Assembly (NCBI GenBank): GCA_951406725.2
Contig: OX597815.1
Span: forward strand, 82,336,001 to 82,400,000
Reading direction: 5' to 3'
From: Octopus vulgaris
Lineage: Eukaryota
Length of the DNA: 64,000 nt
Below are positions 3,859-48,372 of this stretch, in pieces. The notes beneath the pieces were generated by a model. The model was not told where the DNA came from and searched no databases. It saw only the letters and a program-made list of their open reading frames with translations. The position numbers were made by a program, and so were the translations under genes. Each line of letters starts with the position of its first letter. Positions within the stretch are counted from its first letter, which is position 1.

Positions 3859-4583
3859 GAAGGCAGTGAGCTGGCAGAATCGTTAGCATACCGGGCGAAA
3901 AGCTTAGCGGTATTTCGTCTGCCTTGACATTCTGAGTTCAAATTCCGCCGAGGTCGACTTTGCCTTTCATCCTTTCGGGGTCGATAAATTAAGTACCAGT
4001 TACACACTGGGGTCGATGTAATCGACTTAATACCTATGTCTGTCCTTGTTTGTCCCCTCTGTGTTTAGCCCCTTGTGGGTAATAAAGAAATAGGTATTTC
4101 GTCTGCCTTTTATCCTTTCGGGGTCGATAAATTAAGTGCCAGTTACGCACTGGGGTCGATGTAATCGACTTTATCCCTTTGTCTGTCCTTGTTTGTCCCC
4201 TCTGTGTGAAGCCCCTTGTGAGTAGTAAAGAAATAGGTATTTCGACTGTCTTTGTGTTCTGAGTTCAAATTCCGCCAAAGTTGACTTTTCCTTTTATCCT
4301 TTCGGAGTCGATAAATTAAGTACCAGTTGCGTACTGGGGTCGATCTAATTGACTGGCCCCCTCCCCAAACATTTTGTGCCTTGTATCTAGAGTAGAAAAA
4401 TAAAAATAAAGGCTTAGCGGTATTTCGCCCGTGTTTACGTTTTGTGTTCAAATTCTCCCGAGATCGACGTTGCCTTTCATCCTTTCGGGATCGATAAAAT
4501 AAGTACCAGTGAAACACTGGGGATCGATGTAATCGACTCTTCCGCGCCCCCAGAATGATTGCCCTTGCGAAAAAATTTGAAAC
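3859..4583 (+). mobile_element. Tandem array of SINE family A (one head plus four bodies)
   Basis: Head aaggcagtgagctggcagaatcgttagc with B-box-like gagttcaaattcc and core gcctttcatcctttcggggtcgataaattaagtacc. Bodies restart at ggtatttcg at 3909, 4093, 4236 and about 4419. Confidence 0.9.
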
Positions 4584-33873: not shown

Positions 33874-35095
33874 AATTTCTTTATTGCCCACCAGGGGCCA
33901 AAGATAGAAACGGATAGAACAACTGATGGGATCAGTGAAGCGATATGATTTTACATATAATGTGACTTTAAAAATTTAAATACAATATGTAAAAAATCGA
34001 ATAGAATTAACAATACAGAAACAATACAAATGAAGCGATGACCAGGCCACGCTCCGACCCCACAAGCCCCGATCTACCGCTGGTCTCTTTTTTTTCCGTC
34101 TATTCACACGGTTCCTTGCACGCACAACACTCGTGCAACATGCTTCCATCTCTTTTGGAACGTACACTCCGACAGACACCTCTTCTCCAGTCACAGCTTC
34201 CTTTTCAAATGAAAAGAAAAAAAGATCGTAAATTCTGACCAGAGATAAAGTTGCCTGTCTTAATTCCTTTTATACTGCCTCTTTTGCTATTGCTACAACC
34301 GTGAGAAAACAATTCTTACCTTCGTTCGTTAGAACTCCCGGTGGGTCAATTTTTATAATTGACTCAGTCGACAGCTGTATTCTTCCTTCGCCGGACAACA
34401 GGTGTTCAGCATAAGCCCACATTTTAGTTATCTCCGGACACTGAACAATAGCGTGAGGGACGGTTTCCCTGTACCCACCACATCTTGGACAGGTCGGCGA
34501 CTGACGTTTACCATGTCTTGCGAGCTTATCCCAAACGGACCAGGTTAAGGACTTTTGGAAGTTGTCCAACGTTCTCAACCCGATTGAACGGTGAAACAGG
34601 CTGTCCAGTTGAATAAATCCGAGACCTAGAGTCGACCCCAGGCCATCCTCGCATTCTGACTCTACCAACCCACTATATAAAATACGTGTGGAACCCCCAC
34701 CACTGGCGTTGCCCGAGCGCCGGAATAGCAAGAGGGCCTTACGGCACTCTTTATGCCACTCACTCAACCTCGGTCTACGAGAACACCAGGCTTCCTGTTC
34801 GCAAAAACTTTTGAACTCAGGGAACATTTGTCTGGCCAGCGGGGACCACACCCGTTCACTATCCAGGAGAATCCAGAGGTGCCTCAACCTTAACGCATGT
34901 CTGCGCATCATTAACCAAGGATCCCTAAACCTCCCTTTAAAGGTTTTTGACAGCAGACAGAGCGTTTCACAAGTGGTGACCTGCCCTTCCACAAAAAGCG
35001 AAAGAGCTGTTTCTCCAACCTGATCAACCACGAATCCGGACAGGGCACGACGGTTAGGCGGTAGGTACTGACCGAAGCGATAAACACATTGGCCA
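33874..35095 (-). mobile_element. 5'-truncated L1/Tx1-clade LINE: ORF2 C-terminus (frameshifted) plus 3' UTR
   Basis: LEKQLFRFLWKGRSPLVKRSVCCQKPLKGGLG and the zinc-knuckle CPRCGGYRETVPHAIVQC are typical of L1/Tx1 ORF2 C-termini. The reading frame ends at about 34100 and the UTR ends ggcccctggtgggcaataaagaaatt. Confidence 0.85.
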
Positions 35096-35522
35096 TTATC
35101 ACAGTTTATTAACTCTTCCTTACAGCATGATTACTACTTGTTAAAAGTAATGACAAATTTTTTCAGCAATTATTTTTGTATACGTAGAAGCTGTGTTCTT
35201 AATGGTTTTTAGATAACCGTTTGTATAGCTTTTCGAAGCTCTCTAACAGAAAACTGATAAGGTATTTATATGTACCCATGGATTTTCATTTTGTACTCCT
35301 TCTAAGGATTCTTTTACTAAGTACTGACAACCGTCACTCGAGAGTGAATATTGTTCAGTACAATGTCTTCACTCATTGTTTTAGGTACCTATGTAGTCGC
35401 GAACAGACATAGGTAGCTTCTCGGTATATCGCCCTTGACACAGTGGAATATCCAAAATCTTACAGGTGTAGGGATAGAGAGAAAGAAAGAAAGAGAGAGA
35501 GAGAGAGAAAGACAGGCCGACA

Positions 35523-39986: not shown

Positions 39987-40238
39987 TTAGGGTAGTACAT
40001 AATTATTGTGTCTTTTATTCAACAAAAACAATAACAGCATTTAACAAAAACATCTTTAAATGATTATTCTGGAGCATATTCACCATCTACTTCAGTTACT
40101 GCTTCCAATTTGCTTGGAAGTCGGTCGGAATAATCATTTAAAGATGTTTTTGTTAAATGTTGTCATTGTTTTTGTTGAATAAAATTAATAAAAAACAACA
40201 ACAAAAAACAAACCCGCAATAAGTATGCACCAACCTAA
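39987..40238. mobile_element. Mariner-derived MITE (long hairpin)
   Basis: TA|ttagggtagtacataattattg versus caataagtatgcaccaacctaa|TA (mariner-type ttaggttggtgca terminus). Inner arms of about 59 bp (ttttattcaacaaaaacaat...aatgattattc) are nearly perfectly inverted. Confidence 0.85.
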
Positions 40239-40360
40239 TACTAAGAAATCATCATCATCATCATCATCTCCAACACCAGCAGTATCACATTCACTATATA
40301 TTTCAAATATCTACTAAAAGCCTTGTGCCAAATTTGAAACCAATATAAATAACGACAAAG

Positions 40361-40972
40361 AGGCAGCGAGCTGGCAGAAGCGTTAGCACGCCGGGCGAAA
40401 TGCGTAACCGTATTTCGTCTGCCGTTACGTTCTGAGTTCAAATTCCGCTGAGGACGACTTTGCCTTTCATCCTTTCGGGGTCAATAAATTAAGTACCAGT
40501 TACGCACTGGCGCCGATATAATCGACTTAATCTGTTTGTCTGTCTTTGTTCGTCCCCTCTGTGTTTAGCCCCTTGTTGGTAGTAAAGAAATAGGTATTTC
40601 GTCTGCCGCTACATTCTGAGTTCAAATTCCGCCGAGGTCAACTTTGCCTTTCATCCTTTAGGGTTCGATAAATGAAGTACAAGTTACGCACTGGTGTCGA
40701 TGTAATCGACTTAATCCGTTTGTCTGTCCTTGTTTGTCCCCTCAATGTTTAGCTCCTTGTGGGCAATGAAGAAATAAGAATCGTTAGCATGCCGAGCAAG
40801 ATACGTAGCAGTATTTCATCCAAATTCTCATTTTGACTTCAAATTCCACCGAGGTCGATTTTGACTTTCATCCATTCGGTGTCGATAAAGTAGGTACCAG
40901 TTGAACACTGGGGTCGATATAATCGACCTACCCCTCCCCGAAATTGCTGGCCTTATGCCAAAATCTGAAATC
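40361..40972 (+). mobile_element. Tandem array of SINE family A (three bodies)
   Basis: Head aggcagcgagctggcagaagcgttagc; restarts at ggtatttcg (40593) and agaatcgttagc (40777), each after an aagaaata tail. Confidence 0.9.
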
Positions 40973-41564
40973 AATATTGCTGATAACAGTAACAGCAATA
41001 AAAAGAATATAATTATGATAATATTGCATACACAAGAGCAAATAGGATAGAAACAGTACCATTGCGATCCAAGAACTACAATATTAAGACCACCGTCAAC
41101 GCTACTACCAACAACGCCATCAGCACCACCATCAAAATAATATCGTCGACGACGGTGTCCACGAACGTAGCACCACGTCCACCAGCAGCACCGTGATTTC
41201 TCTAAAGGCAAAACTGCACTCTTTGAAGTGGAATTTCGTCAAAATCACGAATGATCCATTGTCGCTTTGAATTAACGCCTACTTAATCTGTATTAGTCTT
41301 CGTTTGGCAGCCATAACCCCAAAATGGCGACGGGATTAAGTCCATGTATGTACAAAGTTATATATCTATAGCTATGTAGATAAATAGATAGACAGACAGA
41401 TAGATATAATGCATGTATAAATATACACTAACATATATGTGTGAATATGTTTGGGTATACATGTCCATCTATCTTTCTCTCTCTCTGTATATATATATAT
41501 AACTTTGTTCGCATGTATACATATAGATATGTATGTATGTATATACATATATACAGATAAGTAA

Positions 41565-41615
<51 letters not shown>

Positions 41616-41821
41616 AATGTATGCACACAAACATATAAAAAATTATATTCAAATGTATATATGTACGTGTATATATTTGTGATATATATGCATATGTTTA
41701 TAACTATGTATAATGTATAATATATATTCTATATATATTATATATGATATGATATATATACATATATATATGTATGTATATATATTATATATGATATGAT
41801 ATATATGCATATATATGTATG

Positions 41822-41857
<36 letters not shown>

Positions 41858-41905
41858 TATGTATATATATATATACATACATACTCATATACAGCATCTA
41901 TTTCT

Positions 41906-41957
<52 letters not shown>

Positions 41958-42302
41958 ATACCTTTAATGTACATCTACTACTAAACTGCTATCCTCAATG
42001 TTCAACCCATGGCTAAAATACAACGGACAACGGCAGAATTTGGAAGCAAATTCTAAGAAGATCAAAATATAGTGCATTGGAGACGCCTCGGTAGAAACGG
42101 TGAGCTGATAATCTGAAAATCCCACTGCACTATGTCATTCTGTACTGTCACGTCAATAGTGTCACAACGGGTTTGACTCTTGTCACCTGGCCTGTTATTG
42201 TGTAATATTCATCAGCTATCCTTACAAGGATTCTGATGAAATGTTTATCTCAGGATGTACATATACATAAATAAATGTTGAGAGGGAGAGAGAGGGAGAT
42301 AG

Positions 42303-42339
<37 letters not shown>

Positions 42340-42485
42340 AGGAGAGAGAGAAACCGACATATACAGATCCATAAATGCAAGAAGCACGTATAGCATAGAT
42401 TCAAACAGGCATACATACTGACATAGGTACTTATAGTTATTTAGCTTTGTAAATACCATGACATATATACACGCGCATATGCATG

Positions 42486-42696
<211 letters not shown>

Positions 42697-42905
42697 GTAT
42701 AAACAAACACACCAGACACACTTATTGTAAACAATTCAAATAAATCAGAAGTGTACAGTTCTTACTATTACAGTCAGTTATACACGATATCTAATCATTA
42801 CTATTTGATGAAGTTAGGTATAACTTGGGTATCTCTATCTACAATATATTTATATATGTATATAAATATATATATAGAGAGACATATATATATATAGATA
42901 TATAT

Positions 42906-43005
<100 letters not shown>

Positions 43006-43014
43006 TATATATAT

Positions 43015-43045
<31 letters not shown>

Positions 43046-43208
43046 CATGTATAGTTCATATCAATTGTATTTCGGCCAGAGTTCTTTGGTCAAAATTCTG
43101 TGACCTAATCATTGTGCCTTTGCTTTCCTCTCTCTCTCTATATATGCATGTATGTGTGTGTATATATATATACATGCACATATATATATATGTATACACA
43201 CACACATA

Positions 43209-43253
<45 letters not shown>

Positions 43254-43419
43254 ACAGTTATCGCCATACTAATATGGCATTCTTATAAAAATAAGAAGAA
43301 AGCTGTCCGCTTATTAGCTCCATGAGGCCATCGCCTTAAGTTAGCTATTTGATACACAAACTGTATCCATATAACCTTCGAACAAGGGAGGTCAGTCGCT
43401 CCACACTACTTGAGCGGCA

Positions 43420-43461
43420 GCTACAGACGCGTTTCAGGGTATTGCCCCTTTTCAATGCAGC
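43420..43461 (-). ncRNA. Minimal type I hammerhead ribozyme (U3-A8), copy 1
   Basis: Reverse complement gctgca TTGAAAA gggg caata ccct GAAA cgcg TC tgtagc. Confidence 0.75.
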
Positions 43462-43781
43462 GTAGCCAGCCAGTAGGTGTCGCTTCCGACAATCTCTGTT
43501 CGATGGTTTTATTTACCTAGTTTCGGTGGAATACATCCACTTGTTTTCAATAATAGAAATATTAAAATAACTAAGTCTCTCTAAAAGAGAACAGCGGCAG
43601 CGTTCCCGGAAAATAATAGTTATCGCCATACTAATATGGCATTCTTATAAAAATAAGAAAAAAGCTGTCCGCTTATTAGCTCCATGAGGCCATCGCCTTA
43701 AGTTAGCTATTTGATACACAAACTGTATCCATATAACCTTCGAACAAGGGAGGTCAGTCGCTCCACACTACTTGACCGGCA

Positions 43782-43823
43782 GCTACAGACGCGTTTCAGG
43801 GTATTGCCCCTTTTCAATGCAGC
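43782..43823 (-). ncRNA. Minimal type I hammerhead ribozyme (U3-A8), copy 2
   Basis: Identical to copy 1, 362 bp away. Confidence 0.75.
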
Positions 43824-44248
43824 GTAGCCAGCCAGTAGGTGTCGCTTCCGACAATCTCTGTTCGATGGTTTTATTTACCTAGTTTCGGTGGAATACATCC
43901 ACTTGTTTTCAATAATAGAAATATTAAAATAACTAAGTCTCTCTAAAAGAGAACAGCGGCAGCGTTCCCGGAAAATAATAGTTATCGCCATACTAATATG
44001 GCATTCTTATAAAAATAAGAAAAAAGCTGTCCGCTTATTAGCTCCATGAGGCCATCGCCTTAAGTTAGCTATTTGATACACAAACTGTATCCATATAACC
44101 TGTATCCATATGCCGCTGTTCTCTTTTAGAGAGACTTAGTTATTTTAATATTTCTATTATTGAAAACAAGTGGATGTATTCCACCGAAACTAGGTAAATA
44201 AAAACATCGAACAGAGATTGTCGGAAGCGACACCTACTGGCTGGCTAC

Positions 44249-44290
44249 GCTGCATTGAAAAGGGGCAATACCCTGAAACGCGTCTGTAGC
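44249..44290 (+). ncRNA. Minimal type I hammerhead ribozyme (U3-A8), copy 3
   Basis: gctgcattgaaaaggggcaataccctgaaacgcgtctgtagc; predicted cleavage after C44284. Confidence 0.75.
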
Positions 44291-44610
44291 TGCCGGTCAA
44301 GTAGTGTGGAGCGACTGACCTCCCTTGTTCGAAGGTTATATGGATACAGTTTGCGTATCAAATAGCTAACTTAAGGCGATGGCCTCATGGAGCTAATAAG
44401 CGGACAGCTTTTTTCTTATTTTTATAAGAATGCCATATTAGTATGGCGATAACTATTATTTTCCGGGAACGCTGCCGCTGTTCTCTTTTAGAGAGACTTA
44501 GTTATTTTAATATTTCTATTATTGAAAACAAGTGGATGTATTCCACCGAAACTAGGTAAATAAAACCATCGAACAGAGATTGTCGGAAGCGACACCTACT
44601 GGCTGGCTAC

Positions 44611-44652
44611 GCTGCATTGAAAAGGGGCAATACCCTGAAACGCGTCTGTAGC
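44611..44652 (+). ncRNA. Minimal type I hammerhead ribozyme (U3-A8), copy 4
   Basis: Identical to copy 3; predicted cleavage after C44646. Confidence 0.75.
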
Positions 44653-44872
44653 TGCCGCTCAAGTAGTGTGGAGCGACTGACCTCCCTTGTTCGAAGGTTA
44701 TATGGATACAGTTTGTGTATCAAATAGCTAACTTAAGGCGATGGCCTCATGGAGCTAATAAGCGGACAGCTTTTTTCTTATTTTTATAAGAATGCCATAT
44801 TAGTATGGCGATAACTATTATTTTCCGGGAACGCTGCCGCTGTTCTCTTTTAGAGAGACTTAGTTATTTTAA

Positions 44873-44939
<67 letters not shown>

Positions 44940-45368
44940 GAGCATTATATTATTACTGTTAAAAACAGTAATATTGAAATATTGTATCTATTAAGGTAGA
45001 AGTCTTGCTAACCGCCTCATTATTACTATTTTTAGCAACAATAATGCTTTCATATAGTTACTTTCTTATTGTTAACGATAGTTTTCTCCTTAAACGGAGC
45101 GGGACGTTTAAAGTTCGAAACGCACACGAGTTGATGTAGTGAATATTTTGGAAATAGATATTACTATCCCCAACTGAAGAGTGCAAAGCATGTTTTCTCA
45201 TACACAGCATGAAATCAATTGATATTGGGGAATATAAACTATCTTCAAATTCCATCCTGAAGGTAGTTTTTAAAGTGCTCATTGCATTGCTCGTGTGTGT
45301 ATTTATCGTAGGACTGGTGTTTTTTAAAGCTTTCGCTTTCATCTTTGGCAAGCGGTATTTTTACCCTT

Positions 45369-45434
<66 letters not shown>

Positions 45435-45601
45435 CATACATACATACATACATACATACATACATACTTACATACATATATACATACATACAAATGTACA
45501 GATAAACATATATATATACATACAGATAGATAGTTAGCTAGGTAGATCGATCGATAGACAGACAGATAGACAGATAGATAGATAAATAGATAGATGAATA
45601 T

Positions 45602-45658
<57 letters not shown>

Positions 45659-46229
45659 CAAATATAGCTGCTTTCATTTGTAACAATCTGTTAAAAGTGA
45701 GAAGCCATAAAACGTTCATGAACCATGTAAACTTTATTGGCTGTTTTACTGACTTCAGGTATGAATTCTCAAATCAGTAAAGTAATTTTTGCGATAAAAT
45801 GACTAAAACGCCATCTACAAATGTTGTACGACATCATATGTCATATTCTTAAAATGGTTCATTTCGCAGGAGTAAGATTGCATAATGGCATCCATAAACT
45901 ATTTAGATAGAAATAGTTGGCGTCGATAACTTGTATATTCTAATCGCTGGTGTGTTTTGCCAATGATATTCTCGTTTACGATATATGTGTATTCGTAACA
46001 TTCGATTCATTCGTACAAGGTATTCTGAAGCAGCCGGTGTTTTGACGTAGTTGTTTCTCACCAGCAAGCCGTCCGGTCGGACCAATGAATCTAATAAAGG
46101 AACATATAAAATAGCAACCTAATATGTCTCTAATCTCATACGACCATTTTAAAAAGGTAGTGACATTGGATACAATAGTTCGAGTTTTATTGTTATAAAA
46201 TGAGCTAATGTATTATAGATGCCAAAAGT

Positions 46230-46980
46230 TTAAAATTTTAATGTTCTTTGCAGGCAAAAAAACATACGTCAAAATTCTGTTAAGGAGCGGTGATTTTACA
46301 AACGTGATGTCAAAAGTTTTAGTTGCACAAAATTGATAAGAGTTTCTACTCCTTTTATAAGTTTAAGGAAAGGAATTATTTTTCCAGTTTCAGTTATAAA
46401 GAATATTTTTTGTTTCTGAATGAATTTAGGTATCGGCTTCGTTGTTTAAATGCGTTGGGTGTAAGTCCGATGTGGTATTTTCATAGGTCATTTTTGTTAC
46501 CTTGGTGAAATAGATGATATCTTTCTGCAAGCATTTATTATCGAAGACGAAAGCAAATGAGCTACGACAGTTGCATAATCTGGTTTTAAGTATGGAACAG
46601 GATGTATGTAGTCTGCTTGTAATTTCATTCCAATCGTGTCTGGGGAAATTTGGGTTCATATTCAAAATGGTATGGTACTTAAGTGCTGTGCCAGAGAATT
46701 TTTCAAAACTAAGGTTAGGAAAGAAACTGTCAGTGTAGCTGCTTGTAAGTTACGCGTGGGTTGTATCAAATGGTTTGCCAGCGCAACATAGCTGTATAGG
46801 TAAGATGTTAGCTATTCATCTTTGGTCATCTTCATGGAATCTAGGGTAAGAATCTTTTCGTGTCGATCCAAGCCTTGTGAGTAACATAGAATAGACGAAA
46901 AATTCTTAGAATTATGCCAAAGGAGAGTATACCTATAATTCAAAGGCACGACATTGTTCGGCTGAGTGTCTTGGTAATTT
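46230..46980 (-). mobile_element. Second decayed Penelope-like fragment (linker plus GIY-YIG)
   Basis: Minus strand NFPRH..., RLCNCR....NKCLQKDIIY..KVT, then after a frameshift YHIGLTPNAFKQR...NSFRN: the Penelope-type Cys linker and IIY/YIG motifs. Confidence 0.75.
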
Positions 46981-46991
46981 TGCCTTAAATT

Positions 46992-47382
46992 TTTTTTTGG
47001 AAGCACTCCGTCAATTACGACGAGGAGGGTTCCGGTTGATCCGAATCAACGGAACAGCTTGCTCGTGAAATTTACGTGTAAGTGGCTTAGCACTCCTCAG
47101 ACACGTGTACCCTTAACGCAGTTCTCGGGGATATTCAGCGTGACACAGAGAGTGACAAGACCGCCCCTTTGAAATACAGGTACAACAGAAACAGGAAGTA
47201 AGAGTGAGAGAAAGTTGTGGTGAAAGAGTACAGCAGGGATCACCACCATCCCCTGCCGGAGCCTCGTGGAGCTTTAGGTGTTTTCGCTCAATAAACACTC
47301 ACAACGCCCGGTCTGGGAATCGAAACCGCGATCCTATGACCGCGAGTCCGCTGCCCTAACCACTGGGCCATTGCGCCTCCAC
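46992..47382 (-). mobile_element. Full-length young SINE family D, tail type 3, with poly(A) and TSD
   Basis: Head tggaggcgcaatggcccagtggttagggcagcggactcgcgg...gtttcgattccc (A/B boxes). Direct repeat tgccttaaatt at 46981-46991 and 47383-47393. Confidence 0.92.
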
Positions 47383-48372
47383 TGCCTTAAATTACGTTAA
47401 TAGCACACGTTACTGTTGTGTACTCAACCACTTACATGCTAATTCGATGGTTAAGAAATCAATTGATTGAAAAACTGATACCTTGATGCCGAAACTGAGG
47501 TGGATTAATGTTTTCTTACACTAGATCGTTTTTCTGTCTTTTCCTCTTTGGGATTTTCAGTTTTCGGTTTGAATGTTATTGTTGTAGCTGAAGTTTATGA
47601 TGATGATAGTGGTGGTGATGATGGTGCTATTGATGATGATGATGACGATGATGAGGAGAAAGAAGATGATAATGTTTGTGATGAGGATGTTGATGATGAT
47701 GAGCTGTTAGCTCTGCTGGGGTTGGTGGTTTTGCTGCTGTAGATCATTTTGGAGGGTAAATGTGAAAGAAATTCTTGAATGTTGGGTTATAATAGCCTTT
47801 CTATAGCATATTTTATAGTTTTTAACTGGTTTATTGTGCAGTTTCACATCCCCCCCAATCTTGACTACTAAAACGAGGTAACAACATACACCAACATCAC
47901 AACATACTGAAGATGAGACTGTAGGTCTTCATACACCACTATTGTTGATATACCTAGGCATTTTACATCTTAAGAAGCTGCAATGAAAATTTCCTAATAC
48001 AAGAAAAACAGCTTGTCAGAAAGCTTACAACTAGACCACCATGGTTTGCATTAAAATCTTTAAAAAAATAGCTACTTCAATCAATCAATCTATCCATCCT
48101 TGACTACACAAACATATGCATACACGCACAAATGCACGCCACACAGACACATGCACATACTTTTGCATATTCATTCTCCATTAATTTACATACAACCACC
48201 TTAACACATAAGAAAAGAAATGTCATTGGAAAATTGTTCAAGGAAAATTGTCTGGACCATACTGCAGGATCGTCACGGCTGAATAAGGTTGACTGGAAAT
48301 CTGCTTGATCAAGGTGGAGGATGGTTTTAAAACACCAGCACGACAATTACCAAAACCACTACGAAAGAAACC

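Follow-up and report, generated by a model that had tools for sequence, protein, structure and literature searches.

A tandem hammerhead retrozyme of Octopus vulgaris with the head-to-head, one-tailed insertion layout of Penelope-like elements

The 64,000-nucleotide stretch of Octopus vulgaris DNA analysed here (hereafter the window) carries two head-to-head tandem arrays of a 362-bp unit with hammerhead ribozymes. We consider it likely that the locus is one insertion of a protein-free non-LTR retrozyme, copied into (TA)n by the enzyme of a Penelope-like element (PLE) acting in trans. The locus is an ordinary member of its family, and its value lies in a family-wide rule. A preliminary description of the same DNA had proposed a young non-autonomous element mobilised by a (TA)n-targeting Penelope-like reverse transcriptase (RT); it did not mention the one-sided tail, the feature that ties the family most closely to PLEs. 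Both parts of that proposal hold up well: copies are near-identical and dispersed, the hammerhead covaries and, in the loci examined, no RT/endonuclease ORF lies upstream of the unit save in one ambiguous chimera, and the TA targeting comes with a layout equal to that of autonomous PLEs of the same genome.

The features of the locus are collected in Table 1, unit position 1 being window position 44460. Tandem Repeats Finder delimited a left arm from 43250/43251 to 44101, with 2.4 copies of a 362-nt period, and a right arm of the same period from 44111 to 44881, with 2.1 copies, each with 99% matches, close to the approximately 2.3 and 2.1 near-identical units in opposite orientations counted initially. 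The arms are 99% complementary across 712 nt, with 149 nt between them. Because 44100-44110 repeats the left-arm stretch 44085-44095, the 9-nt junction insert is a templated slip-back. The outer ends were said to run into (TA)n, as they do; they are not alike, the left arm stopping at unit position 362 and the right arm continuing 60 nt past it. The palindrome singled out in the preliminary description is real, and it loses its special status, since a palindrome is the usual insertion product of the family. Read-through of the whole palindrome might, as first proposed, yield a hairpin transcript of about 700 bp. Elsewhere in the window, two-copy tandem repeats of 143 and 184 bp (3961-4253 and 40410-40776) are related in sequence and are probably SINE-like.

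Table 1. Features of the retrozyme locus and of associated loci; positions are those of the window unless a locus is named.
Feature	Position	Strand	Basis or remark
Left (TA)n target tract	43161-43250		Tandem Repeats Finder
Arm A: unit positions 236-362 plus two full units, stopping at 362 (end A), tail-less	43251-44101	-	
Type I hammerhead, U3:A8 core, predicted cut after 43426	43420-43461	-	Core match, covariation
Type I hammerhead, predicted cut after 43788	43782-43823	-	Core match, covariation
9-nt insert at head-to-head junction	44102-44110		Sequence
Arm B: unit positions 14-362 plus one full unit plus tail	44111-44881	+	
Type I hammerhead, predicted cut after 44284	44249-44290	+	Core match, covariation
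Reference 362-bp unit, 41% G+C	44460-44821	+	
Candidate snRNA-type promoter element, about 57 nt upstream of LINE-defined site	44529-44542	+	11/16 matches, P about 0.04
Site duplicated by target-specific LINE at other loci, empty here, unit positions 126-142	44585-44601	+	
Type I hammerhead, predicted cut after 44646	44611-44652	+	Core match, covariation
3' base of long hammerhead-enclosing stem, unit positions 226-241	44685-44700	+	Family-wide 5'-truncation hot spot
Tail at end B, absent from arm A; unit positions 1-60 (most copies: 63)	44822-44881	+	
Right (TA)n target tract	44879-44939		Tandem Repeats Finder
Young LINE with intact ORFs	L135 2223-7573	-	Further copies L234-L248, L279, L280
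U2 snRNA genes	L286 6623-6816; L281 401-594, 6985-7178		

No long reading frame is present in any of the six frames of the unit, and no entry in the window's list of frames of at least 110 codons falls in the array, two checks that agree with the earlier statement that the array is free of ORFs. It accordingly does not contain the RT and GIY-YIG ORF between pLTRs by which an autonomous PLE is recognised. Its properties are those of a non-LTR retrozyme, namely a 362-bp tandem period with two hammerheads per arm, no protein-coding frame and no LTR features.

The four identical hammerhead motifs of the preliminary description are present, with the GTC of the cut site ending at the positions in Table 1 and the ribozyme sense directed outward, on the minus strand in the left arm and on the plus strand in the right. 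They are real and they covary; it is the core assignment that needed correction, the sequence being UUGAAAA, a U3:A8 variant, and not CUGANGA. Because of this variant core, an Rfam scan of 40000-48000 returned no hammerhead at E<=1, its 58 matches being nearly all of TA repeats to microRNA models. Core, 3:8 pair, helices I-III and NUH cut site are those of a type I hammerhead, with 6 bp in helix I, 4 bp in helix II and the palindrome ACGCGU as helix III. U3:A8 cores have been described in schistosome PLE repeats (Cervera and de la Pena, PMC4209133), and the geometry is that of the 'canonical' metazoan type I form of that paper, not of its minimal form, in which helix II has 7-8 bp, an extra nucleotide stands at 9/10.1 and helix III is missing. 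With a helix II of 4 bp and a helix III present, the term 'minimal type I hammerhead' used initially has to be abandoned; the palindromic stem III reported with it is retained across subfamilies, four palindromic variants being found in the alignment described below.

The ribozyme descriptor (core plus downstream family motif) gave 42 distinct versions in the fetched loci, and 22 of them, chosen for subfamily coverage, were aligned. In this alignment, 95.8% of the helix cells are paired, and the helices contain 38 two-sided changes vs 13.8 +/- 3.1 in shuffles, a value reached by 0 of 500 shuffles. The covariation is strong, but no probability is attached to it, given that the sequences are interrelated and the core itself was used to select them. 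The central pair of helix III occurs in all four Watson-Crick forms, so the palindrome has been preserved. The 3:8 pair is U3:A8 in 21 versions and U3:G8 in one; position 7 is variable, the remaining core is nearly fixed and the GUC site is invariant in U and C. In the window's subfamily, a G-U replaces the usual G10.1-C11.1 pair, and the core pattern with the window's base at 10.1:11.1 has 76 matches vs 969 when either base is allowed.

In the minimum-energy fold, a transcript with two ribozymes, putatively self-cleaving, is predicted to form a dimer that shares helix III. The circular monomer is modelled at -115.7 kcal/mol (z = -6.9 vs 100 shuffles), which, with the 41% G+C, makes it the low-G+C, self-paired monomer expected of a retrozyme. 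A second UUGA..GAAA motif in each unit (44160, 44522, 43521-43550 and 43883-43912) was considered as a ribozyme and rejected, GAAA being GAAG in many copies and the segment being deleted in one relative. The rejected motif overlaps the candidate promoter motif discussed below.

The family was searched in the 2.8-Gb genome (227 contigs). The exact hammerhead core pattern had 969 matches and its reversed control 0, so the match is not due to chance. There were 2850 exact matches to the downstream motif, and the end motifs joined to TA numbered 435 for A and 1206 for B, a difference affected by the better conservation of the B-end motif in older subfamilies. A search with the unit gave 1313 candidates, of which 40 were scored; these are nearly all pieces 97-100% identical. 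Subfamilies with identities as low as 77% retain the unit of about 362 bp and both ends, and a more distant related family is likewise tandem and inverted. The retrozyme family is dispersed as many hundreds of scattered copies. Among the sequencing runs listed, the unit is present in 20 of 23, all as contigs and none on record as RNA; four runs guessed to be RNA showed coverage and nothing more, and a 392-nt contig in X3 is explained as well by a tandem array as by a circle.

To describe the insertions, the window was pooled with 19 loci from the unit search, 40 other exact-core loci of contig C1, 16 motif loci and 32 further loci. After removal of edge-cut clusters and one duplicate, 115 insertions were kept, a non-random sample that includes one local duplicate. 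Two arms were found in 74 of them, in every case head-to-head: 65 are A+B, one is A+A, one is B+B and seven have one undefined end. One of each end, position 362 and the 60-63-nt tail, is thus found in 65 of the 67 two-arm insertions with both ends defined. The A+A case is, judged by its coordinates, the chimera L151, and the B+B case is an old copy with one arm weakly matched. The remaining 41 insertions have a single arm (23 B, 13 A, 5 other). An independent check of C1 with exact end motifs (37 A and 97 B ends) gave 18 A+B, 0 A+A and 1 B+B insertions, the last in a subfamily of 81-88% identity. The two head-to-head B+B insertions, L299 1501-1982 and L109, both belong to older subfamilies. 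An inverted 5'-truncated copy with a one-sided tail is the PLE type of insertion.

TA repeats abut 113 of the 127 defined ends, which cluster at unit positions 362/359 (A) and 63/60 (B). CTATTAT closes both kinds of end, a minority of which stop three bases short, and the two registers would be expected if the TA primer pairs with either UAU of the heptamer. At the junction, overlaps of 2-4 nt, measured from BLAST edges, were seen in 28 of 55 insertions. It is extremely improbable that the palindrome is an assembly or chimeric-read artefact. Inverted repeats are known to cause assembly errors, and a contig spanning the exact window locus was not seen among the contigs of other runs; against this, the junction differs from locus to locus, the A+B end rule and the TA flanks are fixed, and a LINE sits within such arrays with a clean duplication. 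Moreover, among 63 joints listed in contigs of two other large runs, at least 15 connect a left arm with a right arm, the place of the joint varying, so this assembly is not alone in showing the layout.

A palindrome could also arise by fold-back or self-priming, one strand copying itself, as PMC3846280 proposes for PLEs. This would account both for variants that stand in register in both arms and for the short inverted microhomologies at the junction. It requires, however, that one arm lie wholly within the other, which is violated in 23 of the 65 A+B insertions, the window included; also, 31 of these have their A end on the left and 34 their B end, and arm lengths are unrelated. We regard fold-back as improbable. 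Two cDNAs, one per site, started from the two sides of one cut and joined by their 3' ends, fit all cases. The 5' truncations of the arms, counted at 182 ends with six LINE-linked loci excluded, concentrate at unit positions 226-241 (39 vs 8.0 expected). There is no pile-up at the putative start (3 vs 5.0 expected) and at most a weak excess at the cut site (9 vs 5.0 expected, P 0.07). Arms are up to 8.2 units long and continue seamlessly through the cut site.

Endonuclease-bearing PLEs are known for this combination of an inverted, 5'-truncated copy with a tail on one side (PMC8557442, PMC3846280), and the likeness of the footprint points to a PLE enzyme. The genome holds candidates for this role. 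A very young autonomous family (L101-L104, L071-L100), with more than 100 matches at 100% identity, has a 753-codon RT-endonuclease frame in which Pfam called the RT only and a CX4CX2C motif precedes a C-terminal GIY-YIG-like domain; going by the description in PMC8557442, it is probably of Neptune or Nematis type. This family also has an additional upstream frame of about 370 codons and a long 3' region. Its two 3' ends, about 50 nt apart, are present as one of each in 4 of the 4 inverted loci read, and the same pairing is seen in 7 of 7 visible inverted pairs of a second autonomous family, which has a 39-nt tail. U3-type hammerhead cores are present in both.

These two families, out of 18711 first-look candidates, were compared in depth with the retrozyme unit, and no significant common sequence was found. 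A homologous pLTR was absent both from the search for the shared motif (2850 matches, 16 loci read) and from that of the older family (30 loci). The preliminary description had suggested checking whether the unit flanks an RT/GIY-YIG ORF, and in the examined loci it does not: a PLE ORF is absent beside 114 of the 115 insertions, as fetched, and beside all 30 older-family loci. The exception is the ambiguous chimera L151 (2336-3596), in which a retrozyme arm adjoins the 3' portion of the second PLE family, with a short microhomology at the join. As proof of a partner, L151 was rejected, the join being explicable by a template switch or by a DNA deletion.

The same loci bear on the idea that the arms are mere 3'-end debris (pLTRs) of an autonomous PLE, to which we give very little probability. 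U3:A8 cores are known from PLE pLTRs (PMC4209133), PLEs are heavily 5'-truncated, the loci read are a small part of the genome's copies and L151 does link the unit to the 3' part of a PLE. However, what lies upstream of each unit is another unit, up to eight in a row and in subfamilies of 77%-100% identity; the PLE ORF is missing as just described, and that of L151 is on the downstream side of a join that may be a DNA deletion.

In vitro, the protein of an anole PLE cleaves the two strands of AT-rich DNA and extends each of them, starting at two neighbouring internal positions of the RNA that delimit the tail (Frangieh et al., PMC11167929). In common with endonuclease-bearing PLEs (PMC8557442, PMC3846280, PMC11167929), the retrozyme has partial tandems, a head-to-head inverted copy, a tail at one end, TA/AT-rich targets and a hammerhead upstream of the tail. 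Unlike them, it is ORF-less and has a tail of 60-63 nt vs 30-40, and its start sites share a heptamer able to pair with the target, whereas the anole PLE starts at non-homologous sites (PMC11167929).

Flanks common to several retrozyme loci led to the detection of a LINE. It is 5351 bp long, with a zinc knuckle in ORF1 and with APE, RT and zf-RVT domains in the 1140-aa ORF2. In 19 of 19 copies recovered with a pattern taken from its own 3' terminus, the 3' end of the LINE is followed by the unit from position 126 onward, leading into the retrozyme body in 16 and into the duplicated site and the next tandem LINE in 3; with two further 99% copies found at the same site by protein search, the total is 21 of 21 near-identical copies. 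Full copies duplicate unit positions 126-142 and are flanked by units of different subfamilies, and tandem stacking of the LINE was seen on contig C2. No LINE is inserted in the window's retrozyme copies. The window also has, at 34273-35130 on the minus strand, a related LINE ORF2 fragment that matches the targeting LINE with 76% DNA identity in a stretch of 254 nt.

Eighteen other LINE relatives were read. Seven lie immediately 5' of hammerhead-like motifs that belong to a second repeat family, one of these seven motif sites passing the strict descriptor; one is in a third hammerhead-like repeat, one in (TC)n and one at the start of a U2 gene called by Rfam. Another is between two U2 genes, at what we take to be a U1-like start, a label of our own and not an Rfam call, and the rest are tandem, broken or in another repeat. 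Sister LINEs with 82-90% DNA identity are found upstream of hammerhead-like motifs at L283-L285, L287, L289, L290, L292 and L293, and the small tandem repeats that they hit share a short post-ribozyme motif with the 362-bp unit. A relative of 79% identity (L295-L297) forms tandem stacks at a fixed site of yet another repeat. The motif located 57 nt ahead of the LINE-defined site is similar, both in sequence and in placement, to the region preceding three U2 snRNA genes, which hints at an snRNA-type promoter element. A promoter of snRNA type has been reported for newt satellite 2 (Coats et al. 1994, cited in PMC2220036); the octopus unit would be similar in combining a hammerhead repeat with an internal promoter of this type, here a candidate by a weak motif match. 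Target-specific LINEs of the Tx1 clade include Tx1L in Tx1D, Keno in U2 and Tx1-Mar (PMC4494074). The octopus LINE is like these in its APE, RT and zf-RVT domains, its one fixed site and its relatives in U2 and (TC)n, and unlike them in targeting a hammerhead retrozyme, the likeness being drawn from domains and targets and not from a tree.

Under the mechanism that we propose, tandem units would be transcribed, perhaps from the snRNA-type promoter within the unit, and adjacent hammerheads would dimerise through the palindromic helix III, cut and release a 362-nt monomer that could be ligated to a circle. A PLE protein would then cleave the two strands of a TA tract, whose 3' ends would prime one cDNA at site A and another at site B; both sites end in CUAUUAU and could pair with the TA end. 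Each cDNA would proceed upstream for up to several units, often halting at the base of the big stem, and the 3' ends of the cDNAs would be joined with the help of a templated insert or of microhomology over a few nucleotides, which would produce the mirror image and the one-sided tail. The templates are probably both circles and uncut multi-unit transcripts.

The role of the circle is where the main alternative differs. In it, the same element and PLE enzyme operate on linear multi-unit transcripts only, and unit number is restored by unequal exchange or template jumping, which we find rather unlikely. Among variants private to one locus in a sample of 70 loci, 137 are in one unit, 11 in all covering units and 5 in a subset of units. 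At the window, a change at unit position 199 is confined to the outermost unit of each arm, so a single monomer circle is insufficient and a linear multimer or later gene conversion is needed; an exact-match search for this both-arm variant found no donor locus, its one further match being an unrelated single unit of a different subfamily. Unit-specific variants are in register in both arms at L006 and L052 as well, and L123 has a variant in its two middle units. Uncut RNA is, in addition, the main substrate in PMC11167929, and local amplification by unequal crossover is discussed by Li, Clavereau and Pollet (bioRxiv 10.64898/2026.07.22.740005).

Against copying without circles, every copy is 5'-truncated, so unit number would drop with each generation in the absence of a monomer-to-multimer step. 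Likewise, 11 variants are homogenised over all units of their locus, the 5'-end peak at the start site is missing, and circles have been shown for mussel, coral and axolotl retrozymes (PMC7229834). The all-unit variants, the arms of up to eight units and the seamless passage of the cut site favour a monomer-to-multimer step, and one such as rolling reverse transcription fits the arm and variant data. Our preferred explanation, a retrozyme with circles copied by a PLE enzyme, has evidence against it too: the five private variants confined to a subset of units, the PLE partner with homology to the unit that was not found in these searches, the two B+B insertions and the G-U at 10.1:11.1. In addition, eight of the nine predicted retrozyme dimers of Li et al. 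did not cleave, and the ribozyme was dispensable for insertion in vitro in PMC11167929.

Metazoan non-LTR retrozymes, including 350-390-bp mussel repeats with circles, have been published (Cervera and de la Pena 2020, PMC7229834). Like these, the octopus family has a small tandem unit with one type I hammerhead each, low G+C, a self-paired monomer, no ORF and hundreds to thousands of copies. It differs from them in its U3:A8 core, in occurring mostly as head-to-head pairs with two fixed ends in (TA)n, and in that cleavage and circles, demonstrated for the published retrozymes, are here predictions. In the accessible text of PMC7229834, which proposes PLEs as the movers of retrozymes, 'inverted' and 'target site' have 0 occurrences. 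Vertebrate retrozymes have been described as non-autonomous PLE derivatives by Li et al., with whose preprint our results agree in making retrozymes dependent on PLEs. The basis there is co-occurrence and pLTR homology; here it is the insertion footprint, and no pLTR homologue was found. The accessible main text of that preprint contains no 'tail', no 'target site' and no mollusc. The literature covered, with most subscription papers and Repbase outside its scope, yielded no inverted-and-tailed PLE footprint in retrozymes, no count of a one-of-each rule and no LINE that targets a retrozyme. Retrozymes and the PLE layout have each been published; we found no paper on this layout in a retrozyme family.

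The partnership of PLEs and retrozymes has so far been backed by co-occurrence and pLTR homology, not by mechanism. In the present family, dozens of the loci read bear the complete PLE footprint; the two start sites are placed at single-nucleotide resolution, and one of each end is used in a nearly strict manner. A direct assay could combine a 362-nt substrate, mutants of its two sites and intact candidate enzymes of the same genome, and the family offers a genomic test of how the inverted ends and tails of PLEs arise. As a joint reading, which we advance only tentatively, the data would describe a three-tier system of RNA parasites, made up of a circular retrozyme driven by an snRNA-type promoter, a dimer of the PLE enzyme and a LINE. 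Each CUAUUAU site would be assigned to one subunit of the PLE dimer, so that every insertion event would use the two sites once each, and the LINE lineage, which also hits U2 genes, would have switched to retrozyme start sites, borrowing the promoter and the downstream ribozyme. If this joint reading is true, the 362-nt unit would be a minimal natural substrate for two-ended PLE priming.
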